A stretch of DNA of 64,000 nucleotides from an uncultured Candidatus Saccharibacteria bacterium. GTDB lineage: Bacteria > Patescibacteriota > Minisyncoccia > Phycocordibacterales > PALSA-1337. This document shows, piece by piece, positions 4,214-52,170 of the stretch. The position numbers were made by a program, and so were the translations under genes. Where the stretch lies: positions 36,684 through 100,683 of the forward strand of contig CAZHHB010000002.1 in assembly GCA_964532285.1 (NCBI GenBank), given 5' to 3'. Under the pieces are notes generated by a model. That model saw nothing but the letters and a program-made list of their open reading frames with translations. It was not told the origin of the DNA and made no database searches. Position 1 is the first letter of the stretch. The number at the start of each line of letters is the position of its first letter.

Positions 4214-4234
4214 TACCGAGATCGGATCTTGGTG
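4214..4234. repeat. 21-bp palindromic repeat unit (taccgagatcggatcttggtg), family P
   Basis: Matches units at 32724, 35876, 37441, 45545, 47039, 47666, 48893 and 52130. Confidence 0.7.
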
Positions 4235-4237
4235 TTT

Positions 4238-5608
4238 CTAAGCTTTCTCCAGCCACTCCTTCTCTTGTCTGACCAGGAGTCTCGCCGCTCGATCTGGTTC
4301 TCTCATCAGAGCCTTTACAACTCTCTCCATCCTTATAGATTGTGAACCCTTCACCAGGATAATATCACCAGGCTTCATGATCGATACGAGATAATCTGGC
4401 ACTTGACTTGAAGAGTCAAATGAAACGACGGCACTTTCGGCAAGACCAGCTTGGACAGCCTCTCCGGCTGTTGACCGAGACCTTTGCCCTACCGTTATCA
4501 GACGGCCAACAACATTCGCAGCTGCCCTACCGACACTACGATGTTCTTCAGAGGCATATTTACCCAATTCCATCATGTCTCCCAAGACAGCAATCTTCGT
4601 TCCATTACATTTCAAATCTTTCAGGGCCTGGAGTGCGGAGAGTGTTGCATCAGGAGAAGAATTGTAAGTATCATCTATGATCGTGGTTTCATTCAAACCA
4701 GGGATGATATTCATACGCCCATGAGGAGCCTCGTATGTGTTCAATCCTTTGACTATAGTTTCAAAACTCAAATTGCGAGCCTTACCGACAGCCGCGGCCG
4801 CCAATAGAGGATATTGATAGACATTTCCCAAAACATTACCAATCCTGATCTTTTCTGTTCGACCTTCAATTATCAAATCAAATGTAATGCCTATAGGAAT
4901 ATCTACCTGTTTTGAATTTGAAATACCTAAGCCTTCTGTAGTATTAGAAACACTCGTAGCCCCCAACATGTTTGATTCGTAAACCGTTGAAACGCCGCCC
5001 GACCTAACTGTTGCTTCGGGATTTGTGCCGTATGACAAAACCTTAACATCCTTATCCTTGATCATACCCTTCATAGACATCACTTTCTCATCATCAGCAA
5101 AAAGTATCACCGTACCACCATCTTTCACCGCTTGAACCAAAGAGAACTTCTCTTCAAAAACTTGTTCGGGGGATGTGAAGAATTCGACATGAACCGGAGT
5201 ACGACTAACCATAGTGATCACAGAAATATCTGGATGCAACCATTTCGCAATCTTTTTGATGTCTCCTGGATAATCTGCCCCTATTTCTAGAATCAGACAA
5301 TCAGGATATTCTTGGCGTTTCAGGATCAAACTCAATCCTCTATGAATATTCTCAAGCCACAGAGCGACACTATGCCAAGCATTTGGGACACCGATCACAG
5401 TCAGGGGTAGTCCGATATCACTATTGAAACTCTTGTCGCTTTTCCTCACATATTTACTCTGATCTTTTAGGACACAATAAATAGCATCTTTTGTAGAAGT
5501 CTTGCCGACACTACCTGTTACGGCAACGATAAAAGGCTTGTATTTACGCAATATCAAACGAGATTCCCAAATGAGAATCTTTATGATTATCTTCTTGAAA
5601 ATAAACAT
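4238..5608 (-). CDS. murF: UDP-N-acetylmuramoyl-tripeptide--D-alanyl-D-alanine ligase
   Basis: 456 aa; P-loop AVTGSVGKTSTK and Mur ligase domain architecture. Sits in dcw cluster context. Confidence 0.9.
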   Translation of the reverse strand: MFIFKKIIIKILIWESRLILRKYKPFIVAVTGSVGKTSTKDAIYCVLKDQSKYVRKSDKSFNSDIGLPLTVIGVPNAWHSVALWLENIHRGLSLILKRQEYPDCLILEIGADYPGDIKKIAKWLHPDISVITMVSRTPVHVEFFTSPEQVFEEKFSLVQAVKDGGTVILFADDEKVMSMKGMIKDKDVKVLSYGTNPEATVRSGGVSTVYESNMLGATSVSNTTEGLGISNSKQVDIPIGITFDLIIEGRTEKIRIGNVLGNVYQYPLLAAAAVGKARNLSFETIVKGLNTYEAPHGRMNIIPGLNETTIIDDTYNSSPDATLSALQALKDLKCNGTKIAVLGDMMELGKYASEEHRSVGRAAANVVGRLITVGQRSRSTAGEAVQAGLAESAVVSFDSSSQVPDYLVSIMKPGDIILVKGSQSIRMERVVKALMREPDRAARLLVRQEKEWLEKA

Positions 5609-5611
5609 ATT

Positions 5612-7333
5612 TTATCTATCGGGTACGATATTGTAATAGCTTATCAGAAACTTCGCCAAATCGCTAAAGGGGTCTGTTAGAGTCTCCGAGGCGTATTCGG
5701 CACCCTTTGGGTAGACTTGATACAAGAATACTAAAAATTCTGGATCATACGCAGGGAAATATCCGAAAAATGAATGTAAATACCTATCAGAATAGTATCC
5801 CCCACTCTTATCAGCAATCTGGGCCGTACCAGTCTTGGCGGCAATACTATATCTCTCCATGCGTATATTGGGATGCGAAACAGCGATTTTCTCATCGACA
5901 ACTTTGACCAACATACCAGTAACACTGTCCGTAGTTTCTTTTGAAAGTACCGGCCCACTTCTCTGTGGTTGATTCTTCTTTATTGTCCCATCAGAATAAT
6001 CTATCTCTTTCATCAGATGAGGTGTAACCAAATAACCCCCATTGGCAAGGACAGAGAGCACTCTGGTCATACTTATAGGAGAAATGGATATGCCTTGACC
6101 ATATGCCATAGTGGCAATTTCTACATCACGCCCAGTCTTTAGATTGGTAGCTATGCCCGCAGATTCAAACGGCTGATCAATACCGGTTTTCTCCCCCAAA
6201 CCAAATTCAGTAAAATATTTTACAAAGACTTCTTTACCCATTTTGAGAGCAATCGTAGCCGCCCCGACATTCAAAGACTGACTGAGTATTTCCTGCATCG
6301 GGATAATGCCTCGAGCCTTACCGTCATAGTTAGATATCTTTTTACCCGACAAAGTCATCGTTCCAGTATCATCATATGTAGAGTGTGGTTTTTCTGTACC
6401 GCTATCCAAGGCGGCGGCCATAGTCAAAGGTTTCATGATTGACCCCATCTCGTAAGCGCTCTCGACCAGGGGATTGGATAGGATAGAAATGTTTTTGATT
6501 GATGAGGTATTATTCGGATTGAAAGTGGGCAGAGAAGACATGGCTATAATCTCCCCTGTTTTTGGGTCTATGACAATTCCACCGATTTCATCTGGACGCC
6601 AGATGGTATTGGTTTGAACCAAGACTCTTTCCAAATATCTTTCAACCGTCGGTTCTACGGTCATGATGATATCGCCTTCTTTTTTGGAACTACCACCGAA
6701 GATAGTATTCCTCAAACCAGAAAAAAGCTCAGCAAAGACATTGATATTATTACTGCTACCAGAACGGCTCAAAACATCTTCGTATACGCGCTCCAGACCA
6801 TAACGCCCAGTGACAGATGAGGATTTCGAATCTTCACCTACAATACCCAGAGTATGAGCCGCCAAACTTCCCCCCGGATAAGATCTCCAAGTTTTTGGGA
6901 TTACACTTACTCCATTTATAAGCAAATTCTTCACAGACTGTGCAACCACAGCATCAGTCTGATCAACCAGTACTTCATAATGACTATTGGGTTTACCGGC
7001 TTTCGCCAAGAAATCCGTCTCATTTAATTTTATATACTGAGATAATGCTTCATATACCTGCACGGGGTTGGCTATAACCGTCGGATTCATAAATATAATG
7101 AAACCACTTTCCAGAGTAGCGGCTGAAGCTTTGGTGCCATCTTTCGATTGAAAATACATGGATCCCCTATCGAAAAGTGTATTTAACGGTTTGACATATT
7201 GTTCATTTGCTTTAGTGGCATATGATTTACCCCTGACAATTTGCGTCCAGTAAAGAGACACGGCTATCACCATCGCCCCCATAACGATTAAAATTAGAAC
7301 TATTTTAGCTCGCGAATATTGTTCAGAGTTCAT
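5612..7333 (-). CDS. ftsI: Penicillin-binding protein, class B transpeptidase (FtsI-like)
   Basis: 573 aa; N-terminal TM, transpeptidase motifs SIMKP, SSN-like and KTGTAQ. Lies downstream of ftsL. Confidence 0.85.
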   Translation of the reverse strand: MNSEQYSRAKIVLILIVMGAMVIAVSLYWTQIVRGKSYATKANEQYVKPLNTLFDRGSMYFQSKDGTKASAATLESGFIIFMNPTVIANPVQVYEALSQYIKLNETDFLAKAGKPNSHYEVLVDQTDAVVAQSVKNLLINGVSVIPKTWRSYPGGSLAAHTLGIVGEDSKSSSVTGRYGLERVYEDVLSRSGSSNNINVFAELFSGLRNTIFGGSSKKEGDIIMTVEPTVERYLERVLVQTNTIWRPDEIGGIVIDPKTGEIIAMSSLPTFNPNNTSSIKNISILSNPLVESAYEMGSIMKPLTMAAALDSGTEKPHSTYDDTGTMTLSGKKISNYDGKARGIIPMQEILSQSLNVGAATIALKMGKEVFVKYFTEFGLGEKTGIDQPFESAGIATNLKTGRDVEIATMAYGQGISISPISMTRVLSVLANGGYLVTPHLMKEIDYSDGTIKKNQPQRSGPVLSKETTDSVTGMLVKVVDEKIAVSHPNIRMERYSIAAKTGTAQIADKSGGYYSDRYLHSFFGYFPAYDPEFLVFLYQVYPKGAEYASETLTDPFSDLAKFLISYYNIVPDR

Positions 7334-7655
7334 TTCCAGTCATGGCGACACGACCAATCGGAACAGATCGAGGAATATATTCACTTACATGCCCCTGACT
7401 CATACCATGAACGGATAGGCTGTCAGGCATGATGGTGCTGGAAAGTTCTATATATTTACCATCCAAACGATCGACAGAAGCACTCAGAGTCTTCATCTCT
7501 ACCCCAATCTTTTGTATAGAAACTGTATTCGAAACTATCTTATAAATATTGATGGCATACAACAGGGCCAATACAGGACAAATAACAAAGAATACATAAG
7601 CGATCTTTGTACGATATTCGGAAGCAATATTATAAGTTTGTGCTATTTGTTTCAT
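7323..7655 (-). CDS. ftsL: Cell division protein FtsL-like
   Basis: 110 aa single-TM coiled-coil protein between rsmH and ftsI; position is conserved in dcw clusters. Confidence 0.6.
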   Translation of the reverse strand: MKQIAQTYNIASEYRTKIAYVFFVICPVLALLYAINIYKIVSNTVSIQKIGVEMKTLSASVDRLDGKYIELSSTIMPDSLSVHGMSQGHVSEYIPRSVPIGRVAMTGNEL

Positions 7656-15300: not shown

Positions 15301-15362
15301 CAGTAAGGGAACATTAGCATATAGGAGAGTAATGATACAAGATTCAATACCCATAATGAATC

Positions 15363-15505
15363 TGCCCTCTCGCCAGCCTGCGGAACTCGCTCGTTAAATT
15401 GCTAGGTAAAATGCTCAGGAATTATAAATAATTCCAACAACATTCGCATTTTACCAAGCAATTTATACTCACTCAGACAGTCCTCGGCTGTCTCGAAGAC
15501 AGATT
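15363..15505. repeat. Copy A of ~150-bp palindromic intergenic element (family L), extended by locus-specific IR cataatgaatctg / cagattcattatg
   Basis: Shares the core ...gaaattgctaggtaaaa.gctcaggaatt...aattccaac.acattcgc.ttttaccaagcaattt... with copies at 38941, 42325, 54150, 57577 and 63160. Confidence 0.8.
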
Positions 15506-15547
15506 CATTATGGGTACAAATAATAAGACATAAATCCGACCTATGTT

Positions 15548-17825: not shown

Positions 17826-17880
17826 TTATACCCCGAGGTCCGACCTAGCGGTATCTAGGTCGGACCTAGCGGTATCTACC
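17826..17880. repeat. Divergent variant of palindromic repeat family P (ccgaggtccgacctagcggtat x2)
   Basis: Two tandem units gaggtccgacctagcggtatc / taggtcggacctagcggtatc. The palindrome is preserved with substitutions relative to ccaagatccgatcttggtata. Confidence 0.55.
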
Positions 17881-20214: not shown

Positions 20215-20500
20215 CACATCTCGTATACCACTAGCAAGCCCCCTGCGGGGCTTGCGTCCAAGACTCGAACGGCGGAGCGATGTTTCGCGCACCAGCGCGA
20301 AACCGCGAGCCGGTGGCTAGCCCGAACGAGCGGGTAGCGAGTGAGAGGCGAAGCCGAGTCCTCTGTACCGCGCCTGTAAGGCGAGAGTCCTCTCCCCGGC
20401 ACTTCTACGCTCTTCACTCGCTACGCTCATTCAGAGCTACGAAGTGCAGGCACAATAGAATGTTTTTTATAAGATACCGCATAGATAACTATAGTAGTCA
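20215..20500. other. GC-rich (~65%) structured non-coding segment carrying an 18-bp direct repeat of the tRNA-Leu 3' end (att-like scar)
   Basis: gagtcctctccccggcac occurs at 20189-20206 (within the tRNA) and again at 20385-20402; gagtcctct also occurs at 20359. Several GC hairpins are present (agcaagcccc/ggggcttgc; tttcgcgc/gcgcgaaa). Confidence 0.5.
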
Positions 20501-20537
20501 ATATTGTTTTTTATTTTTGAAATGAGAAAATTATGGC

Positions 20538-21368
20538 ATGGAAAAAGAGAAAAAACATTTAGCTATATTTGAAAGTAAACAGATTCGCCGACACTGGGAT
20601 GATCAGTCGGAGAAGTGGTATTTCTCCGTGGTTGATGTAGTGGGTGTATTATCTGAAAGCACAGACCCGAGGAACTATTGGAAGGTCTTGAAAAACAGGT
20701 TAAATGCGGAAGGTAGTGAGTTGGTTACAAAATGTAACCAACTGAAAATGAAATCATCTGATGATAAGTATTATTTAACTGATGCCGCTGACACCGAAGT
20801 ATTATTACGCCTCATCCAATCAATTCCATCCCCCAACGCCGAACCATTCAAGCTATGGCTTGCCAAGGTCGGCTATGAAAGACTAGAAGAAACCGCTGAT
20901 CCAGAGCTTGCTATCAATCGTGCCCTGAAGACTTATTTGGCAAAGGGCTATTCACCAGCGTGGATAATGCAGAGGTTGAAGAGTATTGAAATTCGCAAGG
21001 AACTTACTGATGAATGGGAGAAGGCAGGGGTTAAAGAGGGTCTAGAATTTGCCATCCTTACAGATGAGATTACCAAAGCATGGACAGGCATGACTACCCG
21101 TGAATACAAAAATCTCAAAGACCTCAAAAAGGAGAATCTGCGTGACAATATGACCAATCTTGAGTTAGTTCTCAATATGTTGGCTGAGACCGCTACTACG
21201 GAGATTTCCAAAAAAGTGGAGCCGAAAGGGTTGGAACCGAGTAAGAAGGTTGCTAAGAAAGGAGGTCAAATTGCCGGAAATGCTCGACGACAAGTGGAAG
21301 CGGAAACTGGAAAACCTGTTATTACTGGTGATAATTGGGAGACTAGAAAGAACAAATCACTCAAATGA
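20538..21368 (+). CDS. Bro-N domain protein, DinD-like (DNA-damage-inducible protein D family)
   Basis: 276 aa. The N-terminal KWYFSVVDVVGVLSESTDPRNYWKVLKNRL is Bro-N-like. The C-terminal region resembles DinD/KilA-C-like antirepressor proteins. Confidence 0.5.
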   Translation: MEKEKKHLAIFESKQIRRHWDDQSEKWYFSVVDVVGVLSESTDPRNYWKVLKNRLNAEGSELVTKCNQLKMKSSDDKYYLTDAADTEVLLRLIQSIPSPNAEPFKLWLAKVGYERLEETADPELAINRALKTYLAKGYSPAWIMQRLKSIEIRKELTDEWEKAGVKEGLEFAILTDEITKAWTGMTTREYKNLKDLKKENLRDNMTNLELVLNMLAETATTEISKKVEPKGLEPSKKVAKKGGQIAGNARRQVEAETGKPVITGDNWETRKNKSLK

Positions 21369-21455
21369 ATATAACCAGGCTATCGAAGATATAATTAAAC
21401 TAATAAAAAAGGCGCACACAGTGAAGTGCGCGCCCTGTGATAAAGAACTTGGAAA

Positions 21456-22553
21456 CTAACCCTTGCCACCGTAACCGCCTGGCGATACCAGCTTAATCCC
21501 TTGGGAGATGATGTGGTACACACCCTCAAGGGTATTCGTAACGGTTGTCTTCGTCTGGGGATCCAGTAATGCGGGAACCTCGATCTTTTTGCCAGTCGCC
21601 TGGTTTTCGAGCACATACGAGGTAGCAGCTTGCCCACCAGAAGTGTATGTGTGTAGAACGACGTTCGTCGTCGGTTTGTCAAATGTGACAATACCCAACG
21701 GGATGTTGCCGTACTCATTCCCCTCACCATCCTTCCAAGTCCAGACAACCATCGTCAAGTCGCTCGTGTTCTTGAAGGAGACGAGGTCACTTGAGTTTTG
21801 CAACAAAACCCTGACCTCCACGGGCGTAAGTGTAACCGGAGAACCGTCCTTGAGTGAGATCGTCTCTTGAAAATACGACCACACATTATCACCGGCCGGC
21901 TTCCATCCCGAGATGGCTATCACCCCGTTGCCGGCGTATTGGGATTGGAAATAAAAACCGTCACTATCCGTCCTCAAGGACACTGGATATGGGTTATTAT
22001 TGTTGGAGTCGCGAACGATGAGTCGCACCCCTCTCAACTGTACGCCGTTGGGCACCGCAATCTTGACTTCCGATGATAGGTATAAACCCACCATCTCTGC
22101 CCAATCTGGCAGTAGCCACCGACCATACTTGTCTTGGTAAGGTTGTGATGTGCTACCGCCACTGAATAGTGGCTGTGGTTTGTTCCCCGACCAGCGAATC
22201 TGATTCCAGTTGTTTGTGCTGTACAGATCCATGCTGATGGAGAAGTAGTCCTTCGGCGAAGTAACCTGCAAAACCCAGCGTTCGTTGACCAGCAGTTCCA
22301 TGATCCCTTCAAGAGTTTTGATCTTGTCGTTGTATTCATAGAACCGCTCGTTGTACCCATTGTCAGCCGTATCGCTGCCACAGGTCACATTCACCGCAAC
22401 CCCCTGCACCTGTTTGAAGGCGTAGGAGATCAGGGCGGTCCGATTGGTAAGCATGGACAAGTCCATGTTCACAGCAGTCTGCGCTTGAGTTTGCACTGGC
22501 ATCCAAATGCCGAGGCACAGGAAACCGACGATTAGTGTGAGTATGTTTTTCAT
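21456..22553 (-). CDS. Secreted hypothetical protein (signal peptide), GC-rich
   Basis: 365 aa; signal peptide MKNILTLIVGFLCLGIWMPVQTQAQT. Elevated GC compared with core genes. Confidence 0.5.
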   Translation of the reverse strand: MKNILTLIVGFLCLGIWMPVQTQAQTAVNMDLSMLTNRTALISYAFKQVQGVAVNVTCGSDTADNGYNERFYEYNDKIKTLEGIMELLVNERWVLQVTSPKDYFSISMDLYSTNNWNQIRWSGNKPQPLFSGGSTSQPYQDKYGRWLLPDWAEMVGLYLSSEVKIAVPNGVQLRGVRLIVRDSNNNNPYPVSLRTDSDGFYFQSQYAGNGVIAISGWKPAGDNVWSYFQETISLKDGSPVTLTPVEVRVLLQNSSDLVSFKNTSDLTMVVWTWKDGEGNEYGNIPLGIVTFDKPTTNVVLHTYTSGGQAATSYVLENQATGKKIEVPALLDPQTKTTVTNTLEGVYHIISQGIKLVSPGGYGGKG

Positions 22554-22607
22554 CTATCGCTCTCTCTTTCTTTGTTTGTTTTTTTGGTTTTTGTTTGTTA
22601 CCGCAGA

Positions 22608-22874
22608 TTACTTCAGCGTGATTTTGGTCACGCGAACCGTGACGTGATTTGTGTCCACAGGCCGTTCGGCACGAACAGTGTTACTGGAGGAGTTCTGCCC
22701 CCGCGAGGGATTCTGCTGATTCCTCACAGTCTCATCCACCTTGGACGCACCGTAAATCAACATACCGACGAAGGCCAAGACGGCGACGATCGAAAAGGCA
22801 CAAATCACCCAGATCACACCCCTTGTCTTCTCTTCCCGTTTTTCCTGCTTCCTGACTGTATTAACCTTTTTCAT
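22608..22874 (-). CDS. Small membrane protein, hypothetical
   Basis: 88 aa; K/R-rich N-terminus then one TM (VIWVICAFSIVAVLAFVGMLIY). Confidence 0.35.
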   Translation of the reverse strand: MKKVNTVRKQEKREEKTRGVIWVICAFSIVAVLAFVGMLIYGASKVDETVRNQQNPSRGQNSSSNTVRAERPVDTNHVTVRVTKITLK

Positions 22875-23160
22875 ATTATTTTGCTTTCAAACTGCGTTTC
22901 TGTCGTTTTTTCTGTCTCCAAATGAAAAGTGGCCCGTATAGCCATATCCATTAACTGGCAAGAGTGTATCAGACTAGTTGGCAGATGTCAATACTTAACT
23001 TGACAAGAACAACTCATAATGCTAACATGCAACCAGTACGCACAGTCTGCTTGAACCTTCAAATGTTCGCTTTGCGGATATGAGATGGGGCGGATTGATA
23101 ACATACCTAGGAAACTAGGATCATAATAAATGGCGATAAGCCATTAGCAGAAAGAACAGT

Positions 23161-23838
23161 ATGAGCACACAAGTAGCAGGAACGGCAACGAGCACGGAAG
23201 GACCAACACTTCTCGTGCTTGAAGAGAAACAGCCGATGACCACCGAAGCCTACGACTGGATGATGAGTATCAACTCTCTTCCTGGGTGCGGACTCTCCCC
23301 AATTCGTTTCATTGGGTTGAAAAACATCGAAAGGCTCTCGGAAGCCCTCGGACACCAGATAACCCTTGAGGAGGCGAAGATACTCGTCCGGTTGGACGGT
23401 GACAAAATGAAGTGCGATGATACTGAGAGGGAGTTCCAACCAATCGCATACTGGCCGTACATCAACGCGGACATGGAGAAGGACCTCGCGTCCGGGAAAA
23501 CACTGGCTGAAATCTCCGTGCCCTTTGGCGGAGCCTTCTTCCTCGAAGGCAAACAGATCTTCGCCTTCTCCGGACCGGTTTACGACAAACTCGGGGCTAG
23601 CTGGATGAATGAAAGCCCGCTTGTCAAAGCGTCAAAAGAAGCCGGCTTCATCAGGAAACTCAAACGCCCGATCTGGGGGAAATGCTTCCAGGTGTTGGCG
23701 GACTATCTGTCTGACGAGGTGGAGAGGAAGAGGCGTCAGCAAGAAAGCCGGGACCGCATCAAAGACAAGTTCTCTGGGAAAAAGCGGGGGCTGAATAAAC
23801 TGAACAATGTTTTTGCCTCGCTGGAACTGGAGGATTAA
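23161..23838 (+). CDS. Hypothetical protein (GC-rich island gene)
   Basis: 225 aa complete ORF with a protein-like composition. The antisense ORFs in this region are R/W/C-rich, which suggests they are artefacts. Confidence 0.4.
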   Translation: MSTQVAGTATSTEGPTLLVLEEKQPMTTEAYDWMMSINSLPGCGLSPIRFIGLKNIERLSEALGHQITLEEAKILVRLDGDKMKCDDTEREFQPIAYWPYINADMEKDLASGKTLAEISVPFGGAFFLEGKQIFAFSGPVYDKLGASWMNESPLVKASKEAGFIRKLKRPIWGKCFQVLADYLSDEVERKRRQQESRDRIKDKFSGKKRGLNKLNNVFASLELED

Positions 23839-24034
23839 CACCCGAGATCAAACAAGATCAAAGAGCCCGCATGTCTACATGCGGGCTCCCTTTTTATATG
23901 TAATATGGAACAAGCCTTGACATCACTATTGTAATGATATATAATGCTCGTCAGTGATTAAAGTTGTTTTGACAACAAATAGAAACGAAAACAAAGACCA
24001 CGAGCGATCGTAGGTCACAACCACAAGGAAACAA

Positions 24035-25534
24035 ATGAAAAGCAACCCAGCGGGATTGCCCGCAGTGAAAGGGTTCAGTCTGAACCATCCGTTTCAGGTG
24101 ACTTGGGGAGAAATTCCCAATACCGAATACATCACGACCGTGATCATCCCTCCCGATGGGAAGAGGATGAAGGGCACCAAGACCAAGAATAATGGTCTTG
24201 ATATCAGGGTCCTGAAAAACATCCCCGGGGAACATATCCTCGAGGTGTTGGCTACTACTCCTGACGGCTCCAGTAAGGGGCCGGCTGGGCGAGTCAGCTT
24301 CAAGATCGTGAATGAAAAAGTGGAGGAGTTCAAGGAACTGCCTCCCGAGGAAGAAGATGAGGACGAGGATCCAAACCAAATCCCCAACTTGTCGGGCGGA
24401 ACGGGATCGACCGCCGGAACTGGAACGGGCACTTCGCCCGCGCCGAATCCGACGCCTGGGTCCGGAGCTGGTCCGGTGAATCGTCCCGCCGGTCCCGTGA
24501 GTCAGCCGACTTCGGGAACCGCGAGTCACGACCTCAGTCTGGCCTTGAACCATCTGGGTGAGGGAATCAAAACCCTGGTCTCTCAGGGTGTGGCAAATAC
24601 AAACTCGCTCCGCACCTTGGCGGAAAGCAACAAGGGATTCGCCGAGGGATTCAGTTCCCTCAGTAGCGAGAATGGACCGCTGGCACAGATGACGCAGCTC
24701 CACGGCAAAACAGCGCTGGCGTTGGATGGGATTCTGATTAAACTCAACCAACTGCCGCCCGCCGCCATTACTACGCCCACCGGTACTGTGGCGACGACCG
24801 GAGTTCAGCAAAAGCCGCAGAAGACCAAAAAGTCCGGAAACGGGAAGTGGTGGCTGCCGGCTGTTGCAATCGTCGCAATGGTTGCGCTGGTTGCATTCGT
24901 TGCCATGAAATCCATGAATAACCTGACCCAAACTCCCCCTCCCGCCCAGTCGATTGAAACCGATAAAGCGGTGATGGATGCCCGAAGAATGGCAGTGGAG
25001 GCCAACAGTAAGGCCAACGAGATGCAGCAGCAGGTGGAAGCCATTCACCGCGAGTTGAACAAACCCGCGCCGGCTCCCATCGCACAGCCGATAACGGTGA
25101 ATGTTGTTGTGACGAACAACAATATCAACAACAACTGTTGTGGGGAAAGGCAAAAGGCGGAAACGCCTGCTGTCCAACCCCCGCCAGTTCCGGCTCCGAC
25201 TGCCCCACCCCAACCGGTGGCACAGGTTCCACAGCAAAAGGGTTATTGGTACCAAGAAGTGGTGCCCGTAGCTCAGACGGTTCAGACTTATGTGGAACCA
25301 CAACAAGTTGTGATCCAGCAGCCTGGATTCAATGGGTATTACTATCAACCGTACGGGCCATCCTGCGGAACTTCCGTTGGATTCCGTGTCGGTATCGGTG
25401 GTGGCTACGGCGGTGGTGGTGGAGGCTATTGTCCTCCGCCGGCACGCGGGGGGTTCTACTCCCCGACACAGTTGAGTCAACCATGTCCACCACAAGGTGG
25501 AGGTGGTCGCGGTGGCCATGGTGGTCGCCGATAA
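24035..25534 (+). CDS. Pro/Gly/Thr-rich low-complexity membrane protein, hypothetical
   Basis: 499 aa with a central TM (WWLPAVAIVAMVALVAFVAM), PAPxP repeats and a Gly-rich C-terminus. The antisense 536-aa ORF has R/W/C-rich composition typical of a GC-rich artefact. Confidence 0.45.
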   Translation: MKSNPAGLPAVKGFSLNHPFQVTWGEIPNTEYITTVIIPPDGKRMKGTKTKNNGLDIRVLKNIPGEHILEVLATTPDGSSKGPAGRVSFKIVNEKVEEFKELPPEEEDEDEDPNQIPNLSGGTGSTAGTGTGTSPAPNPTPGSGAGPVNRPAGPVSQPTSGTASHDLSLALNHLGEGIKTLVSQGVANTNSLRTLAESNKGFAEGFSSLSSENGPLAQMTQLHGKTALALDGILIKLNQLPPAAITTPTGTVATTGVQQKPQKTKKSGNGKWWLPAVAIVAMVALVAFVAMKSMNNLTQTPPPAQSIETDKAVMDARRMAVEANSKANEMQQQVEAIHRELNKPAPAPIAQPITVNVVVTNNNINNNCCGERQKAETPAVQPPPVPAPTAPPQPVAQVPQQKGYWYQEVVPVAQTVQTYVEPQQVVIQQPGFNGYYYQPYGPSCGTSVGFRVGIGGGYGGGGGGYCPPPARGGFYSPTQLSQPCPPQGGGGRGGHGGRR

Positions 25535-25561
25535 ACAATAGTTCCTTGTTCCAACACACAT

Positions 25562-25600
25562 CCCTCGCGCAGACTACAGAGTCTGCCGAGGGTTGTTTTT
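25562..25600 (+). terminator. Terminator-like hairpin gcagact..agtctgc followed by a T-run
   Basis: gcagactacagagtctgc is followed by cgagggttgttttttg. Confidence 0.5.
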
Positions 25601-25809
25601 TGTACTAAAAACTATCACAACACATAAATAAATTTTTGAATACTTGTGCAGAAACTAAAATCTTTGATAAAATTTAAGTATCAGTAGGTAGATTTGCTCA
25701 CGTCAAAGACGAAGGAACTACAATTAAATAATCCGAGGGCGCGCAGAGCCATCACAATCCACTTTTATGAATAAGTGGAAATTTTTTATTAAATTAAATA
25801 AACACGATC

Positions 25810-26799: not shown

Positions 26800-26852
26800 T
26801 TAAACCTATCATCTAAGCCATTCTAAGCCATATTCTCATTATTACATTTCCC

Positions 26853-29901: not shown

Positions 29902-29918
29902 ACGGATGATTGTTATTA

Positions 29919-32708: not shown

Positions 32709-32723
32709 TTTATTGTTTGCTTG

Positions 32724-32744
32724 CCAAGATCCGATCTTGGTATA
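32724..32744. repeat. 21-bp palindromic repeat unit (ccaagatccgatcttggtata), family P
   Basis: Consensus unit; one arm reverse-complements the other around a central C. Confidence 0.75.
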
Positions 32745-35809: not shown

Positions 35810-35875
35810 AAATCAAAAAGGAATCTCTTCCTTAATTGCTTACATTATAGCAGAAAAGGGGTGAAGATTCCAGTA

Positions 35876-35913
35876 CAAGATCGGATCTTGGTATACCGAG
35901 ATCGGATCTTGGA
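35876..35913. repeat. Inverted pair of family P palindromic units (acaagatcggatcttggtata / taccgagatcggatcttgga)
   Basis: Two units in tandem. They are translated as PRSDLGIPRSDL in the spurious ORF 35832-36152. Confidence 0.75.
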
Positions 35914-35920
35914 TAACCCC

Positions 35921-36220
35921 CTACTTCTTCCCCGCCCTCACTTCCACACTTGAGTAAATAACTTTCTTGGGACCGAATAGTAAATCCTTGATATCTGAAA
36001 CAAAAGTTCCGACGCCAGCAATGAGGGATTGTGCTGGGGTGCCAGCTTTGTTGACGGTAGTCTTTACCACTACCTTCGAAGTCTGACCGAGAGTTGTGAC
36101 TGAACCGATCCAGAAAGCGAAAATGATAGCGGTTAGACCGAATGATGTCCAAAAAGCATATCGCTTGCGAACATGCTCTGGTTTCGCACGGAGATTTTCT
36201 AAACTAGTCTGAAATGACAT
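35921..36220 (-). CDS. Small membrane protein, hypothetical
   Basis: 99 aa; TM (FWTSFGLTAIIFAFWIGSV) upstream of gyrA. Confidence 0.35.
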   Translation of the reverse strand: MSFQTSLENLRAKPEHVRKRYAFWTSFGLTAIIFAFWIGSVTTLGQTSKVVVKTTVNKAGTPAQSLIAGVGTFVSDIKDLLFGPKKVIYSSVEVRAGKK

Positions 36221-37406: not shown

Positions 37407-37440
37407 CGCACAGCTTCAAGCTATGCGGTGATTTATTTTA
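37407..37440 (+). terminator. Terminator-like hairpin caccgca...tgcggtg followed by a T-rich run
   Basis: caccgcacagcttcaagctatgcggtg followed by atttatttta. Confidence 0.5.
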
Positions 37441-37483
37441 TACCAAGATCCGATCTCGGTATACCGAGATCGGATCTTGGTAG
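37441..37483. repeat. Inverted pair of family P palindromic units (taccaagatccgatctcggta / taccgagatcggatcttggta)
   Basis: 42-bp composite palindrome immediately after the terminator. Confidence 0.8.
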
Positions 37484-37601
37484 ACACCGCCCCATTTCCA
37501 TGCTAGATTCCTATTACACGGCAAGGGCCGTTTTTAATAGTCTCGCGTAACCCCGCAATTATTTATTAATCGTTAAAAAGCGGAACGGAGACACACATAA
37601 C

Positions 37602-38924: not shown

Positions 38925-38940
38925 GAATATTTTAAGAGTC

Positions 38941-39095
38941 TGGCGATACGTCTTCGAGACAGCCGAGGACCTGTTTGAGCGCAGTAGAAATTGCTTGGTA
39001 AAAGGCGAATGTCGTTGGAATTGTTTACAATTCCTGAGCCTTTTACCTAGCAATTTCACGAAGCGAGTTCCGCAGGCTGGCGAGAGGACGTATCA
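38941..39095. repeat. Copy B of ~150-bp palindromic element (family L), opposite orientation to copy A; locus-specific IR tggcgatacgtc / gacgtatcacca
   Basis: About 90% identical to the reverse complement of copy A, between the convergent genes rpsA and pth. Confidence 0.8.
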
Positions 39096-39109
39096 CCAGA
39101 CTCAAAAGA

Positions 39110-39762: not shown

Positions 39763-40389
39763 ATGGATCCCGTAAGCGATAAACACAGTAATCTTTGGAA
39801 AGAACTACTGGAATGGGTAAAGGTCATCGTTATCGCTCTTATAATCTCTCTCCCTATCAGATATTTCATCGCTGAACCATTCATCGTGAATGGTGCTTCA
39901 ATGGACCCAGCTTTTTCTACTAGCCAATTCCTCATTGTAGACCGTGTCACATACCGCTTCAATGAACCAAAGCGCGGAGATGTTATCGTCTTCAAATACC
40001 CGAATGATCCAAGTACTTATTACATAAAACGCATTATAGGATTGCCAGGAGAAACATTAAATATAAAAAATGGCAAGGTAATACTTGGAAAATATGATTC
40101 AGAATGCAACACTATTGAGAATCGCTCATCGGCTTATTCAGATTGCATCATTCAAACTTTGGATGAACCGTATGTAAGTAGTACTCACGCTTCCAATGAC
40201 ACATTGACCGTCACTCTGAAATCTACTGAATATTTCGTAATGGGAGACAACCGTGCTCAAAGTTCAGACTCGCGCATTTGGGGACCTCTCGACAAAAGCT
40301 TCATCATCGGTCGCCCGATTGTGAGACTTTATCCATTTGACACATTATCATTATTCCCCGGTGAGCATCATGCGTATACACAAAAATAA
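39763..40389 (+). CDS. lepB: Signal peptidase I (S26)
   Basis: Start at MDPVSDKH; TM, then the catalytic Ser box NGASMDP and a K in the GDNR..SDSR box. Confidence 0.8.
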   Translation: MDPVSDKHSNLWKELLEWVKVIVIALIISLPIRYFIAEPFIVNGASMDPAFSTSQFLIVDRVTYRFNEPKRGDVIVFKYPNDPSTYYIKRIIGLPGETLNIKNGKVILGKYDSECNTIENRSSAYSDCIIQTLDEPYVSSTHASNDTLTVTLKSTEYFVMGDNRAQSSDSRIWGPLDKSFIIGRPIVRLYPFDTLSLFPGEHHAYTQK

Positions 40390-40390
40390 C

Positions 40391-41659
40391 ATGAAAACAA
40401 AGGAAAAGAGAAAAACGACCATATCGCGATACATAAATTACAATCATCTAGACAAAATAGGCGAGATCGCTGTCTACTATGGATTCACACCCGCCAAAAG
40501 TCCGATAATTTCCAAGGTTGATCTAGATTTCGCCAAAGGTATCACGGAGGGTGACTATGTGGACGATGAAACTTCCGAGCACGGCAGACTCCCGCTTCAT
40601 GTAGAAGAAAAGATCGCCCTGATCCGCACTTACCAAGAAGAAAATATGTACAATCTTTCCCAGCCGGTTATGCAATATTTCAAAGATCCTTGCAAAAACT
40701 CATATCACACCGGCAATGCTAAGAAAAACATCTATAATCGCTATGCGGATCTGGAGATCCTGGGTGCTTCAGGACCAATAGCCGAAGCCACACTCATCCA
40801 GACAGCCAGAGTGATTTTGGCCGAAGAGGGATATACGGATACGAGAGTGGACATCAACTCCATAGGTGAGCGTGACGCAATAAATCGCTTTGTACGCGAA
40901 CTGACTGCTTATTATCGCAAGAATCTAAACGAGATGACGCCTGAATGTAGGCAGATGTTCAAACGGGATCCGTTTGAATTATTATCTTCGCATGACAAAT
41001 CTGCCAAGGAATTAAATGCCAAGGCACCGCGCTCCATGGACTTCTTATCAGAAGATAGCCGAAAACACCTGGAGGAGGTCTTAGAATATTTAGAAGCTCT
41101 GAAGATACCTTACAACATCAATAACAATCTGATGGGTAATAGGAAATATTGTACAGAGACAATATTCACTATAGTCAATGTTGAACAAAGCAGTGATGAA
41201 AACAAGAAAACTGGCCAACACATACTTGCTTTGGGCGTACGTTATAATGGGCTGGCAAAACGCCTATCAGCCAAAAGAGATGTGCAGGGAGTCGGTATCT
41301 CGATACTGATCAAAAACCACAACAACGGCCTCCGTAAACCTTCTCCAAAAATGAAGAAACCAATCGCTTCATTTGTACAACTCGGCTTACAATCTAAATT
41401 GCTCTCACTGGAAGTTGTAGAAAAACTAAGACAATCAAAAATTCCACTTTACCTATCTTTAGCCAAAGATCACCTAGGCGCTCAGGTTTCTTCCGTAGAG
41501 AGATACCACACCCAATACGTCATAGTTATAGGCAAGAAAGAGGCTGTGGAACGCACGGCTATCGTTAGGAAAAATGATACTCACTCTCAAGAGATTGTTC
41601 CGTTGGATGAATTACCCAAATATATGAAAAAAGTGGAGACACAGTTGTACAAGAGGTAA
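40391..41659 (+). CDS. HisRS-like class II aaRS paralog (HisZ-like); function uncertain
   Basis: 423 aa; motifs RYADLEILG, GVRYNGL (degenerate motif 3) and a C-terminal anticodon-binding-like domain. The genuine hisS is at 55496-56800. Confidence 0.5.
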   Translation: MKTKEKRKTTISRYINYNHLDKIGEIAVYYGFTPAKSPIISKVDLDFAKGITEGDYVDDETSEHGRLPLHVEEKIALIRTYQEENMYNLSQPVMQYFKDPCKNSYHTGNAKKNIYNRYADLEILGASGPIAEATLIQTARVILAEEGYTDTRVDINSIGERDAINRFVRELTAYYRKNLNEMTPECRQMFKRDPFELLSSHDKSAKELNAKAPRSMDFLSEDSRKHLEEVLEYLEALKIPYNINNNLMGNRKYCTETIFTIVNVEQSSDENKKTGQHILALGVRYNGLAKRLSAKRDVQGVGISILIKNHNNGLRKPSPKMKKPIASFVQLGLQSKLLSLEVVEKLRQSKIPLYLSLAKDHLGAQVSSVERYHTQYVIVIGKKEAVERTAIVRKNDTHSQEIVPLDELPKYMKKVETQLYKR

Positions 41660-42317: not shown

Positions 42318-42324
42318 TTATACT

Positions 42325-42480
42325 GTGCTTGTGATATGTCTTCTAGCGAGCCGAGGACCTGTTTGAGCAGAGTATAAATTGCTAGGTTTTTATGCTCGGA
42401 CTGCCAGATGCCCCGTGAGCGTAAAAACCTTGCAATTTAACGATAGCGAGTCCCGCAGGCGAGTGAGAAGATATATCACA
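42325..42480. repeat. Copy C of family L palindromic element (degenerate core); locus-specific IR tgtgatatgtcttct / agaagatatatcaca
   Basis: Shares the arms cgagccgaggacctgtttgagc...gaaattgctagg and ...caatttaacg.tagcgagtcccgcagg. The central part is replaced. Confidence 0.65.
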
Positions 42481-45544: not shown

Positions 45545-45565
45545 CCAAGATCCGATCTCGGTATA
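45545..45565. repeat. 21-bp palindromic repeat unit, family P
   Basis: ccaagatccgatctcggtata immediately after the ftsZ stop. Confidence 0.75.
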
Positions 45566-47033: not shown

Positions 47034-47038
47034 TTACT

Positions 47039-47078
47039 ACCAAGATCCGATCTTGGTATACCTAGATCCGATCTAGCT
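47039..47078. repeat. Family P palindromic unit plus a degenerate second unit (accaagatccgatcttggtata / cctagatccgatctagc)
   Basis: Immediately after the trxB stop. Confidence 0.7.
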
Positions 47079-47423
47079 ACCCCCAACCCCGCCTAATTCC
47101 GCCTTAACCTTAATCAAAACATTCCCATTGAAATAATTTTCAATATTCGCGATACAACCAAACTCGGGTACGCTCACTTCCCCATTCAAAAAGTAATCTT
47201 TGGCAATCATCAGAGTTGCTGTATCCAGACAGGCGTTCGCATTGAAACGAGCTTGGATGCGGAGTTCGTGGCGATTTACAGTATCGGCGTAAGAGATGGC
47301 GGCTGACATTGTAACTAGGGAAAAAGAAATGGTGCCGAGGGCAAGCAGGATGACGGCGGTTACAGCCATGAAGCCCTTGTTCGAGGGTAGGCCTCGGTTA
47401 GTTTTGAATATCTTGTATATCAT
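47073..47423 (-). CDS. Pseudopilin/minor-pilin-like protein
   Basis: 116 aa; N-terminal KGFMAVTAVILLALG hydrophobic segment resembling a prepilin N-terminus but lacking Glu5. Confidence 0.4.
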   Translation of the reverse strand: MIYKIFKTNRGLPSNKGFMAVTAVILLALGTISFSLVTMSAAISYADTVNRHELRIQARFNANACLDTATLMIAKDYFLNGEVSVPEFGCIANIENYFNGNVLIKVKAELGGVGGS

Positions 47424-47595
47424 TTATTATTTCTATATTTCTTAAGTGCGTGCTATATGAATATTGAATGAAACCAGCCAGCAAAAAAGAAAGGAGCGTT
47501 GCGTAAATCAAAGATTCTATCAAAGTGAAGCCGTTACACGGTAACTTGATTGATATTTTGGGCTTAATAAGTAATTTCATAAACAACGGGAGCAT
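47398..47595 (-). CDS. pilA: Type IV prepilin (short)
   Basis: 65 aa; canonical class III signal ...NG|FTLIESLIYATLLSFLLAG. Confidence 0.6.
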   Translation of the reverse strand: MLPLFMKLLIKPKISIKLPCNGFTLIESLIYATLLSFLLAGFIQYSYSTHLRNIEIINDIQDIQN

Positions 47596-48943
47596 TAGCG
47601 GCTAATATGTAGAGATGGTTGCGATCACAAGTAATAGTCTTCGGTAAGATTGGTAGTGAGTAAGCCTCGAGATCCGATCTAGGTATACCAAGATCGGATC
47701 TTGGTATATCAAAAATCTGCAATTCCCTATCTACTTCTCGAGTGATAATAAACGATCTGGAACGATCTGCTACAATCCCATAGACACCGCCCCGAATATC
47801 GGTAGATGTTGGACTAGCAAGAGTTGTGGAGGAATTCGTAGGCCAAGAGAATAATTCATGATCAGAAGTGAGATTGAAACCACCAGAAGTGCGACCGAAT
47901 TTCAAACCGTCTTCAAATAATGAAATGTTCTTCCCTTCTTGTCTTTGCCAGCCAGATGGACTGAGTGAATTCAGAAGTACAGGGTTGGCGGGATCATGTA
48001 CATCAACTACTCGCAACTGTTTCTCATCGGAAGCTGCGATGTAAGCAATACCGTCTCTTACAAAAATATCATTAACTTTTGAATTGGTTTCCATACCGCT
48101 CAACCAGACAGGGTTGGCTGGATCAATGACATCAATAATATTAAATTCATCGCCGTCCCATTTCTCTGTACCGAGATAGACCTTGTTATCATTGAAGAAG
48201 ATGGCACTACCTAGTGCTGGTGTAGCTGTGGCGTAAGGTAGAGGCAATCTATATTTCTTCTCAAGGACTAGATTTTGCAGACTATCCATCCTGATGACAT
48301 GAAGTTCGGATGCTGTGCTTGGGGCTGAAGCAAATATTCTTTTGCCAGCCAGAGCTATTGAGGAGATGCCTGGACCGGTGTTTATCTGTGAGATGATTGA
48401 TGGATTGTCTTGATCTTTTGCATCTATTATCAAGAAGTCTGGATCAGAAGCGGTTGAAGAGTCGGCTCCAATATAGAAAACGCCATTTCTAACTTCAATG
48501 TCGGTTAACGGTAGAAGTGGATCGATTGGGAGATTGATAAGTTTGATGATTGGTGTGGACGCAGAGAAATCAACAGAACAAAGCGGTGTCCCAATGGCAT
48601 AAGAAGCGTCACTTAATTGGAAGACATTCTGAGAATTGGCTTGACGGGCAGAGACGGAAACAAATCGCAGAGTACTAGAAGCAACTTCAATATCTGTCTG
48701 AAACATATCATTACCATAAAGCTTCGTGCTTGAGGTGTAATCGCCAGCCTCATAAAGCTTCAGTGCTTCATCACGAGCTTGGGCTTGTTCAAATATTTCT
48801 TGTGAACCAGTTGAGAGTGAAGCAGTTACAGCAATAAAGATCGTCGCCAATGTCAGCGCCAAAATAATATCAATCGTAAGCGAGCCGGTTTTCCAAGATC
48901 CGATCTCGGTATATTTACTTTTGTAATGCTCTCGAAATATCAT
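47564..48943 (-). CDS. Large pilin-like/pilus-associated protein with N-terminal prepilin-like helix; C-terminus contains an in-frame family P repeat pair
   Basis: 459 aa; KTGSLTIDIILALTLATIFIAV N-terminus. The repeat at 47666-47707 is translated as IPRSDLGIPRSDLE 30 codons before the stop. Confidence 0.45.
   Translation of the reverse strand: MIFREHYKSKYTEIGSWKTGSLTIDIILALTLATIFIAVTASLSTGSQEIFEQAQARDEALKLYEAGDYTSSTKLYGNDMFQTDIEVASSTLRFVSVSARQANSQNVFQLSDASYAIGTPLCSVDFSASTPIIKLINLPIDPLLPLTDIEVRNGVFYIGADSSTASDPDFLIIDAKDQDNPSIISQINTGPGISSIALAGKRIFASAPSTASELHVIRMDSLQNLVLEKKYRLPLPYATATPALGSAIFFNDNKVYLGTEKWDGDEFNIIDVIDPANPVWLSGMETNSKVNDIFVRDGIAYIAASDEKQLRVVDVHDPANPVLLNSLSPSGWQRQEGKNISLFEDGLKFGRTSGGFNLTSDHELFSWPTNSSTTLASPTSTDIRGGVYGIVADRSRSFIITREVDRELQIFDIPRSDLGIPRSDLEAYSLPILPKTITCDRNHLYILAANAPVVYEITY
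47666..47707. repeat. Inverted pair of family P palindromic units inside a coding ORF
   Basis: ctcgagatccgatctaggtata / taccaagatcggatcttggtata. Confidence 0.75.
48893..48913. repeat. 21-bp palindromic repeat unit, family P
   Basis: ccaagatccgatctcggtata at the pilC / 459-aa ORF junction. Confidence 0.7.
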
Positions 48944-51153: not shown

Positions 51154-51341
51154 TTCTTCGGCTCGCCGTAGTCCTGAGCCTGTCGAAGGACGAAGGCGGT
51201 CTAGGCTCGCCGTAGCCATGGGCGGAGGCGGCCCCTTCCCTTTTTTGAAATATGTGGTATTATCTTTCGCAGGCTGTTCTTTCTAGAAAACGATTGGAAA
51301 GACTTGCCTTTCGGCTGTTAAACAATCAAAAATACATAAAG

Positions 51342-52061
51342 ATGGCAAAAAGACTCAAGATCAACGGCATTCTGGCAACGGGTATCAGTCACAGTGGTAA
51401 GGGAACGCTCCTTAAACTGTTGGAGGAGGCCTTGTACCCCCACCATTCTGGGGGTCAGGTGAGTCGTGTGAGCATGGGAGACATCATTGTTTGGGGCAGC
51501 GACCTCAGCAACAAAATCGGCGAGGATGTGCGGAGGGAGCAATTGGAAGTCCTCGGTGGTGGCAGGTTCAGCGATGGCGTACTTATCCGCCTCTTTGACT
51601 TCTGGCTCGCCAGCGAGTTGGAAAGGGACCCGCAGATCAACACCGTTCTCATGAGCGACGCGCCCAGGAGTGTCCCCCAGCTCAATGCATTCACGAGCTT
51701 CGACAAATGGGCGGTGATTCACGTTAAGCTCGGGTGCGAGACCGCACGGCACATCAACCTCAAGAGGAGCGAGAAGGGTGGACGTGTCAACGAGGCCGTT
51801 ATCAGGAATGTGTTCGAGAGGCGGTGGAATCAGTATCGGGACGACACACTCTCCGCACTGAGTCAGTTGAAAAAATCCACAGTGCATGTTGATTACCACG
51901 ACCCCATCAGCATCAAACTGAAGCATGTCCTGCACCACCTCTCGGGAATGGGGAAAGAAAAATCCCCCATACCGCAAAAATTGGTGTCCCACGCCCTGGC
52001 TCGGCTCGAGGTGGAAGATCACCCGATCCATGAACGAATCCGAGCGGTCCAGATGTTCTGA
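51342..52061 (+). CDS. Adenylate-kinase-like nucleoside monophosphate kinase (GC-rich, likely horizontally acquired)
   Basis: Start at MAKRLKINGILATGISHSGKGT (P-loop); NMP-binding-like segment GGGRFSDGVLIRLFDF...DAPRSVPQ. GC is about 58%; the antisense 288-aa ORF is judged an artefact. Confidence 0.5.
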   Translation: MAKRLKINGILATGISHSGKGTLLKLLEEALYPHHSGGQVSRVSMGDIIVWGSDLSNKIGEDVRREQLEVLGGGRFSDGVLIRLFDFWLASELERDPQINTVLMSDAPRSVPQLNAFTSFDKWAVIHVKLGCETARHINLKRSEKGGRVNEAVIRNVFERRWNQYRDDTLSALSQLKKSTVHVDYHDPISIKLKHVLHHLSGMGKEKSPIPQKLVSHALARLEVEDHPIHERIRAVQMF

Positions 52062-52085
52062 TCGAACTGGCCATGAATCATCATC

Positions 52086-52116
52086 TCCCCTACTGCATGC
52101 AGTCGGGGATTTTTTA
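52086..52116 (+). terminator. Rho-independent terminator (cccctactgca/tgcagtcgggg, T6)
   Basis: Hairpin followed by attttttat. Confidence 0.55.
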
Positions 52117-52129
52117 TATCTTGTCCAAA

Positions 52130-52170
52130 TCCAAGATCCGATCTTGGTATACCAAGATCCGACCTTGGTT
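52130..52170. repeat. Two family P palindromic units (ccaagatccgatcttggtata / ccaagatccgaccttggttga)
   Basis: Immediately downstream of the terminator. Confidence 0.75.

Follow-up and report, generated by a model that had tools for sequence, protein, structure and literature searches.

Is a short palindrome that recurs along a bacterial chromosome a sequence that spreads by copying, or a site that selection has put in place many times over? The question is raised by a stretch of contig CAZHHB010000002.1 that carries, at 11 loci, a palindromic unit we call Family P. We refer to this stretch, the whole of the analysed 64,000 nt, as the window. It comes from a bacterium of the candidate phyla radiation (CPR). 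CPR (Patescibacteria) genomes are about 1 Mb in size and heavily streamlined, so a self-propagating repeat family in their intergenic gaps is unexpected. A literature search found no reports of repetitive extragenic palindromic (REP) sequences or of any self-propagating repeat family in CPR/Patescibacteria. We propose, with a probability of roughly 0.6, that the short interspersed palindromic modules of Family P form a lineage-restricted repeat family on a Paceibacterota (CPR) chromosome, akin to REPs and bacterial interspersed mosaic elements (BIMEs).

A repeat family with two subfamilies

The 21-mer CCAAGATCCGATCTTGGTATA, searched with up to three mismatches, gives 18 strand-hits in the window, compared to 0.00 expected from 100 dinucleotide shuffles. 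The loci of the initial annotation, which had described a 21-bp palindromic family, hold to within 1-2 nt. Copy counts and element searches refer to the 64-kb window plus ~7.4 kb of left and ~4.3 kb of right flank, 75.7 kb in all. The module CCAAGATC-C-GATCTYGG-TATA accounts for 14 GATC-type units at nine loci. A relaxed search adds three units of a covarying GGTC/GACC subfamily at two loci (17832-17875 and 55347-55365). The local density is then 17 units in 75.7 kb (~1 per 5 kb), patchily distributed; the 7.4 kb to the left and the 4.3 kb to the right of the window contain no units.

The mismatch spectrum is bimodal. Sites of the 17-mer core CCRAGATCSGATCTYGG are either near-perfect (10 perfect, two with one mismatch, one with two and two with three) or, from four mismatches upward, at background level. 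Four, five and six mismatches occur at 5, 22 and 80 sites, where a Markov-3 background yields 4.1, 24.7 and 121. One three-mismatch site, 46813 in trxB, was rejected as a unit: it consists of conserved EIGS codons, the relatives encode EIGS too, and the match is due to chance. We also rejected a graded drive toward the motif as the main process, given this partial match and the lack of an excess at four to six mismatches.

Family P is not an assembly artefact, because Logan and ENA assemblies made independently from four runs reproduce the units with 100% identity, and because contigs break where they should. No empty sites or strain polymorphism appear among the Logan and ENA contigs of this population, all of which are 100% identical. 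Three independent Logan contigs stop at window position 47067, within the doublet at 47036-47079, as expected since a multi-copy k-mer breaks contigs.

An oriented module in singles and doublets

The unit is an oriented module of 21-22 nt, 5'-CCAAGATC-C-GATCT(C/T)GG-TATA(T)-3', in which an 8+1+8 palindrome is followed by a 3' TATA. Units frequently come in pairs, which the initial annotation took to be inverted. The pairing holds: all five GATC-type doublets, as well as the GGTC-type doublet, have an exact 21-bp period, and the spacer is always the 4-bp TATA. The inversion holds only in part. In a palindromic unit only the centre base tells direct from inverted pairs, and by this base two of the five doublets are inverted (tail-to-tail; 37443/64 and 47667/88), whereas three are direct head-to-tail tandems.

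Once all units are oriented with C at the centre, further polarity becomes visible. All six units with unequal arms read CCAAG...CTCGG, and the converse never occurs. On the 3' side TA follows 12 of the 14 units, while the variable 5' flank has TA in just 6. With centre base, arm variant and 3' flank linked in this way, the units are best read as copies of an oriented template, not as convergence on a symmetric site.

At the same time, the symmetry is conserved. Compensatory changes, with both sides of a palindrome pair altered, affect five of the ten pairs when the two subfamilies and four genomes are taken together. The covariation score, 0.239 versus 0.122, was reached by none of 500 shuffles. 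The doublet at 17832-17875 confirms the earlier observation of a divergent variant that keeps its palindrome. Since this covarying GGTC...GACC subfamily exists, it is the palindrome symmetry itself that is maintained and GATC is dispensable, which weakens the suggestion that GATC (as a Dam target, for example) is the essential element.

Maintained symmetry is also what one would see if the units were binding sites of a symmetric dimeric DNA-binding protein, such as a regulator, a nucleoid or partition protein, or a centromere-like array, and had been selected in place. The 8-1-8 half-sites, the doublets exactly two helical turns apart and the change from GATC to GGTC in both half-sites together suit such sites, as do the 8 of 11 loci inside 20 kb and the palindrome arms in rsmE that are perfectly kept between genomes (see below). 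However, the linked polarity of centre base, arm and flank points to copying, the apparent clustering at 32.7-52.2 kb does not reach significance (P about 0.07), and the sites are found at gene 3' ends, in coding loops and behind terminators, not at promoters. The same syntenic intergenic regions of relatives lack units, a 29-nt insertion polymorphism exists, and the window has no DnaA-box clusters or origin features. Hence, we consider sites selected in place to be quite unlikely.

Two specific versions of this idea were rejected. For an origin or centromere, DnaA boxes are not enriched, there is no dnaA gene in the window, the GC skew is confounded by gene strand and the clustering is not significant. 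A parS-type array fails on the same DnaA-box result and on the absence of the motif from syntenic relatives; the unit is presumably also unrelated in sequence to the parS consensus. An outward extended -10 promoter, TGGTATATT, was rejected as well: its orientations are inconsistent with the adjacent genes, and promoter-like matches do not exceed those in shuffled sequence.

Placement behind genes

Nine of the 11 loci are intergenic, in 10.8% of the sequence (binomial P = 9e-8). Six loci begin 0-8 nt past a stop codon, namely those of the Mur ligase, RNase III, methyltransferase, FtsZ, TrxB and PilC genes, and several units take up nearly the whole gap between two genes. The dispersed, extragenic and often paired arrangement after stop codons and terminators, for which the family had been called REP/BIME-like, is thus supported within the window.

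A single GATC-type unit on the minus strand, CCAAGATCCGATCTCGG-TAGT (4212..4232), lies 5 nt past the stop of the Mur-ligase gene (4238-5608, minus strand) and upstream of tRNA-Glu. The GGTC-type doublet, CCGAGGTCCGACCTAGCGGTAT / CTAGGTCGGACCTAGCGGTAT (17832..17875, 21-bp period), fills the 57-nt gap from the RNase III stop (17876) to the SMC start (17818). On the plus strand, the single unit CCAAGATCCGATCTTGG-TATA (32724..32744) adjoins the methyltransferase stop (32745), 15 nt from the start of a solute-binding-protein gene (32708). Two plus-strand loci follow division and redox genes: a single unit (45545..45565) begins 8 nt past the ftsZ stop codon, and a direct doublet (47036..47079) begins 2-6 nt past that of trxB. 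The second unit of this doublet is a CTAG variant that supplies the TAG stop codon of a convergent 116-aa gene. The plus-strand single unit at 48893..48913 starts 1 nt past the pilC stop.

Upstream of genes we find two loci. The minus-strand direct head-to-tail doublet at 35875..35912 is 66 nt upstream of the gyrA start, inside a probably spurious open reading frame (ORF; 35832-36152). The single GGTC-type unit CACGAGGTCGGACCTTGAA (55347..55365) occupies a divergent intergenic region and is nearly identical to a unit of the other carrier genome described below (L003:9467).

Two GC-rich genes (48% and 53% versus 43.5% for the window) are each followed by a canonical terminator, a hairpin plus T-tract, and then by a doublet, as had been annotated. 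Right behind the terminator of the REC-domain gene lies an inverted tail-to-tail doublet that forms a perfect 42-nt palindrome (37439..37484). Behind that of the P-loop kinase-like gene, 28 nt before the bipA start, lies a plus-strand direct doublet (52131..52172) whose second unit (52152) is a GATC/GACC hybrid. Neither Pfam nor NCBIfam gives a match for the P-loop kinase-like gene itself (51252-52061, GC 52.8%, with GISHSGKGT), whose neighbours are pilB and bipA. It looks inserted in this lineage, because in the relative L006 this position is just a 617-nt gap without a gene call.

Could the units work in RNA instead, as conserved-sequence terminators, stabilisers of mRNA 3' ends or RNase III sites? 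Known analogues would be the pairs of DNA uptake sequences (DUS) of Neisseria, mycobacterial TRIT and pneumococcal SPRITE. Stop codons do directly precede the majority of copies, one of the genes followed by a doublet is that of RNase III, and at these positions relatives carry either a canonical terminator or different palindromes. The arms span 8-12 nt, and inverted doublets can form perfect 19-bp stems (-21.8 kcal/mol as a single-stranded DNA fold for 37439-37484). A single unit, however, offers a stem of just 7-9 bp with a 3-nt loop (-3.3 to -7.9 kcal/mol as single-stranded DNA), and the sense strand of most single units holds an A-C mismatch, not the G-U form. No T-tract follows the units, and scanning for terminators picks up a single site among them, 32722-32742, which is on the antisense strand. 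Strong canonical terminators precede two of the doublets, which hence would rarely be transcribed. An action at the RNA level therefore seems unlikely to us.

Coding copies in a 459-aa protein

Three units are read in frame in one gene of the window (47564..48943, minus strand), which encodes a 459-aa prepilin-like LVIVD beta-propeller protein. The unit behind pilC codes for YTEIGSW, residues 11-17 in a leader region of variable length. We take the ATG at 48943 to be the true start because the N-terminal motif MIF(R/Q)K... recurs in several orthologs. The other two units form the inverted doublet at 47667..47708, translated as IPRSDLGIPRSDLE (residues 413-426).

This doublet had been described as an in-frame insertion. 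In an alignment with 24 orthologs (51-59% identity) the gap between the conserved blocks ELQIF and AYSLP is about 10 residues long (D-RSLSTT-TAL), compared to 15 in the window (DIPRSDLGIPRSDLE). The doublet thus does add residues, but it takes the place of a variable surface loop, so that the net gain is 5 aa and not a clean 14. In an AlphaFold model of the protein (mean predicted local distance difference test score, pLDDT, 81.5) residues 413-426 make up the loop that links strands 408-412 and 425-428; at 415-422 the pLDDT falls below 50.

The same peptide had been reported from two spurious ORFs. The probably spurious ORF 35832-36152 indeed contains IPRSDLG, whereas ORF 51318-52184 reads its unit in another frame. 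A protein search for other in-frame copies, with IPRSDLG repeated six times as the query, gave no match at E <= 10.

A second carrier genome

Exact-pattern scans of 185,579 GTDB species genomes and of JGI metagenomes turned up a single further organism with the unit. This is a Paceibacterota metagenome-assembled genome (MAG) of 37% GC (JBAZBL010000004 = Ga0172379_10000613), in which about 21 kb contain six units, three TACCGAGATCSGATCTCGGTA and three of GGTC type. A third carrier is the organism sampled in runs SRR22216446/SRR22216451. The loci fetched from the MAG cover other genes and show no sequence similarity to the window. Among viral contigs the unit had a single match, which fell within an ORF on a contig of 58% GC and was put down to chance, and BLAST searches of plasmids and phages with the doublet gave no match.

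The carrier MAG has a unit inside rsmE, the only gene outside the window found with one. The unit reads IPRSDLG, and a GGTC-type unit 40 nt upstream reads YGGQTSV. The alignment to solved RsmE structures is ungapped there, and ~100 Paceibacterota RsmE orthologs carry a loop x(R/K)SD(L/I)(G/S), for example FERSDLGE or LHRSDLSE. The rsmE unit is not an insertion, because RSDL(G) is ancestral and the length unchanged. The initial annotation had named ancestral protein sequence as the finding that would contradict its view, and for the RsmE copy the orthologs show just that. In a 59%-identical ortholog (L016) RSDL is encoded by AGG TCG GAC CTC, a GGTC-type core that is palindromic still. The RSDL codons are palindromic in both of the two independent lineages compared.

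Closer relatives reveal both conservation and gain. Two contigs with rsmE, L004 and L014, the latter from a close relative of the carrier MAG, are 12% diverged (88% nucleotide identity). The 40 arm nucleotides of their two intragenic rsmE palindromes show no difference (P = 0.006), the sole change being one flipped centre base. Exactly at the rsmE stop codon the two differ by a 29-nt indel, where L014 has an extra 23-bp GGTC-type palindrome, ATACGGAGGTCTGACCTCCGTAT, which is a centre-flipped copy of the unit 234 nt upstream. It lengthens the C-terminus of the L014 RsmE by 9 aa (SEYGGLTSV); the remaining orthologs end shortly after VVF. This comparison of sequences is direct evidence that units of this superfamily can be gained at stop codons.

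The same pair of lineages differs elsewhere: between the RNase Y and clpP genes, JBAZBL01 has a ~2.2-kb insertion that carries an ORF and is missing from the 88%-identical relative (L001 1721-4009 versus L014 2315-2425).

In-gene copies at a compatible ancestral peptide, with unchanged length, are reminiscent of uptake signal sequences (USS) in Haemophilus genes. CPR bacteria rely on a type IV pilus/competence system, and Family P could be an uptake-signal-like sequence enriched by biased uptake and recombination through it. The window encodes PilB, PilC and pseudopilin-like proteins, extragenic copies are often paired after genes like DUS, the identical motif occurs in distant lineages, and a putative island at 20-28.6 kb is free of units, though not significantly so. 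Other features argue against uptake: the exact doublets, the 29-nt insertion, the linked polarity and the lack of a graded excess of near-matches. DUS and USS are spaced evenly at ~1 per kb, whereas Family P is patchy at about a fifth of that density, its palindromic core is unlike known uptake sequences, and the closest syntenic relatives lack the motif. We regard enrichment by uptake as highly improbable.

Other palindromes in syntenic relatives

The gene order Pth...FtsA-YdjM-FtsZ-TrxB-(459 aa)-PilC-PilB-BipA is common to the window and three relatives, L006 (GCA_041666915.1), L007 and L008, none of which has Family P units; the contig Ga0114951_10002447 is one of the syntenic non-carriers. 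At equivalent gaps, for example behind ftsZ and between pilC and the 459-aa gene, they have other repeated palindromes, ATTCCCGCGAAGGCGGGAAT and CCCCCTTTTTCAAAGGGGG (L006 14373-14458; L007 650, 4096, 7366-7393 and 11021; L007 10111, 10256, 12883 and 12954). By sequence, then, palindrome families differ between lineages at what appear to be the same safe sites. Since L006-L008 carry ATTCCCGCGAAGGCGGGAAT where the window has Family P, these gaps are probably generic landing or survival sites.

How the units may spread

The copy-type mismatch spectrum, linked polarity, exact doublets, patchy phylogeny, insertion polymorphism and extragenic survival together argue for a propagated element of the REP/BIME kind. 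For the mechanism and the enzyme we infer the following from what is observed, which is the copy structure, the placement, the absence from syntenic relatives and one insertion polymorphism. Units would spread by copy-and-paste, as singles or as doublets with a 21-bp period. The copying would be driven by an activity acting in trans that recognises the hairpin or the palindrome. Copies would survive where they are harmless: in the short gaps that separate a stop codon or terminator from the gene that follows, and now and then in variable surface loops of proteins. Coding copies can be tolerated because 21 bp equal seven codons and the unit has no stop in any frame.

Which enzyme could do this? 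The initial annotation suggested a REP-associated tyrosine transposase (RAYT). REPs are defined by a 5' tetranucleotide GT(A/G)G directly upstream of the palindrome (PMC3686654, PMC3337134). The flanks of our 14 units, on both strands, read TATA, ACTA, CTTG, TCTT, TTTT, AAAT and the like. Family P is not a member of the RAYT-type REPs, because GT(A/G)G is absent and no RAYT/IS200-like (Y1) or other transposase gene is present in the 75.7 kb. Nor is it a miniature inverted-repeat transposable element (MITE): MITEs enclose roughly 50-500 bp of internal sequence in terminal inverted repeats and have target-site duplications, whereas the 21-bp unit has no internal sequence and no consistently duplicated flank. 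The earlier ideas of an in-frame insertion and of a RAYT or GATC target are thus only partly borne out.

Several results weigh against a propagated family. The tetranucleotide GT(A/G)G is missing from either strand at every one of the 14 units, and no target-site duplication is seen at the units. No transposase of any kind, Y1_Tnp included, occurs among the window ORFs scanned with Pfam and NCBIfam, and the flank extensions contain no transposase domain according to precomputed Pfam annotations. Copies are counted within 75.7 kb, of which the outer parts, ~11.5 kb at the left end and 16 kb at the right end, are nearly free of units. The sole insertion polymorphism belongs to the GGTC subfamily of another genome and not to Family P of the window. 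Finally, the overlap of the rsmE unit with ancestral RSDL(G) at unchanged length does not seem explicable by simple transposition.

The in-gene copies do not look like simple insertions; they are located where the ancestral sequence already resembled the unit. They may have arisen by homology-seeded short-patch conversion, or by a template switch at a quasi-palindrome hairpin that "perfects" it. Template-switching at quasi-palindromes is reviewed in PMC7202029. Alternatively, the rsmE segment might be related to the origin of the family.

Two more novel proposals can be considered. Family P might be an uptake-signal analogue for self-recognition by the CPR competence/type IV pilus system, or it might consist of hairpins that spread without a dedicated transposase, through template-switching or short-patch conversion at quasi-palindromes such as the RSDL(G) codons of rsmE, possibly its birthplace. 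We find this pair of proposals very unlikely.

Comparison with known repeat systems

A REP/BIME-like element remains our preferred explanation, and the likeness extends to the REPs, BIMEs and REPINs (REP doublets forming hairpins) that RAYTs mobilise in Gammaproteobacteria, among them the selfish REP/BIME repeats of E. coli. Both consist of short palindromic units (about 20-35 nt in REPs) at gene 3' ends; REPs are nearly all extragenic, as are nine of the 11 Family P loci in the window; both form close doublets, have lineage-specific sequences and covarying stems, and come in several subfamilies per genome. There are also differences. Family P lacks GT(A/G)G, and its palindrome is near-perfect with a single central base, where REPs form a bulged stem-loop. 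Its linker is invariably the 4-bp TATA, its doublets may be direct or inverted, some of its copies are translated in frame, and it lives in a CPR host, without a RAYT in the 75.7 kb.

Rickettsia palindromic elements (RPEs; PMC10969869) are likewise palindromic repeats of a reduced genome, found in frame in unrelated housekeeping genes and tolerated in surface regions of proteins. RPEs are about 100-150 bp long and add a whole peptide segment, whereas Family P units are 21 bp (7 aa) and mostly intergenic; in coding sequence they either stand in for a loop of similar length or overlap an ancestral motif. Neisseria DUS and Pasteurellaceae USS are also short over-represented motifs that occur as pairs behind genes and as coding copies without length change, in organisms with type IV pili. 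In contrast to the 17-bp palindrome of Family P with its copy-paste signatures, they are non-palindromic 9-12-mers spread by drive and not by insertion.

Neisseria dRS3 is a recombinase or phage target. We take ATTCCCGCGAAGGCGGGAAT of L006-L008, which occupies gaps that hold Family P in the window, to fit the dRS3 consensus ATTCCC-N8-GGGAAT. The dRS3 sequence differs from that of Family P.

The host chromosome and its other features

The window is bacterial chromosome of a CPR organism (Paceibacterota) and carries housekeeping genes. The host is assigned to the CPR because homologs of the 459-aa ORF are labelled Candidatus Paceibacterota or Patescibacteria in their source records. Pfam scans identify mraZ/mraW, penicillin-binding proteins, Mur ligase, MreBC, SMC, RNase III, NusB and GyrA; ribosomal protein S1, Pth, signal peptidase, YbeY, FtsA and FtsZ; and TrxB, PilB/PilC, BipA and HisRS. 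An Rfam scan of the window finds nothing beyond tRNAs.

The unit-free island is a putative integrated element at 20216-28600, immediately past tRNA-Lys and tRNA-Leu, where GC climbs to 47-52%. It holds Bro-N and RhuM/Fic domain genes and several ORFs without a family match, two of which are long and overlap each other on opposite strands (23951-25561 and 24035-25534). Within these GC-rich ORFs ARAGORN calls a tRNA-Asn with the unusual anticodon ATT (25398-25473), which Rfam does not confirm at the gathering threshold and which is probably a false positive.

A second repeat family is MITE-like. It is ~160 nt long, with terminal inverted repeats of ~20 bp (AATATGTCCTCTCGCCAGCC...GGCTGTCTCGAAGACATATT) and a long internal hairpin. 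Its five to six copies (15350-15520, 38925-39100, 42318-42420 (partial), 54160-54330, 57570-57740 and 63135-63300) all lie in intergenic gaps at gene 3' ends, and Logan contig L018 begins and ends inside two of them. Downstream of a HisRS gene, perfect palindromes are densely stacked at 56801-56928, with a 30-nt arm pair of 100% complementarity and further palindromes at 56833-56858 and 56867-56890. Relative L007 has analogous palindromes after its 462-aa gene (5745-5803).

There are two HisRS-like genes (40337-41659 and 55496-56800), one canonical and one a divergent paralog, perhaps HisZ-like, that shows only weak matches to the tRNA-synt_His and anticodon-binding families and is syntenically kept in relatives. 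Two tandem genes resembling type IV secretion system pilins (28985-29413 and 29485-29952) have a 165-nt segment in common at 93% identity, a sign that they may have duplicated recently. The gene at 57740-62221 encodes a secreted or surface protein of 1493 aa; its C-terminal region has Thr/Pro/Ser/Val repeats (PTVSPT...) with a 12-nt period (57814-58129) that dominate the local GC skew.

Implications for the CPR

Family P is a real and well characterised family that works like REP/BIME, a new variant in a phylum for which we found none described. Its units have practical consequences: they break short-read assemblies of CPR MAGs, and they create spurious ORFs and gene extensions. If full genomes confirm our explanation, Family P would be a marker for horizontal exchange between Paceibacterota lineages, because the identical unit is present in distant genomes and not in syntenic relatives. 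A comparison of carrier with non-carrier genomes would then be a route to the copying enzyme. Family P would also be the second natural case, beside the RPEs of Rickettsia, of palindromic DNA that is written into protein loops.

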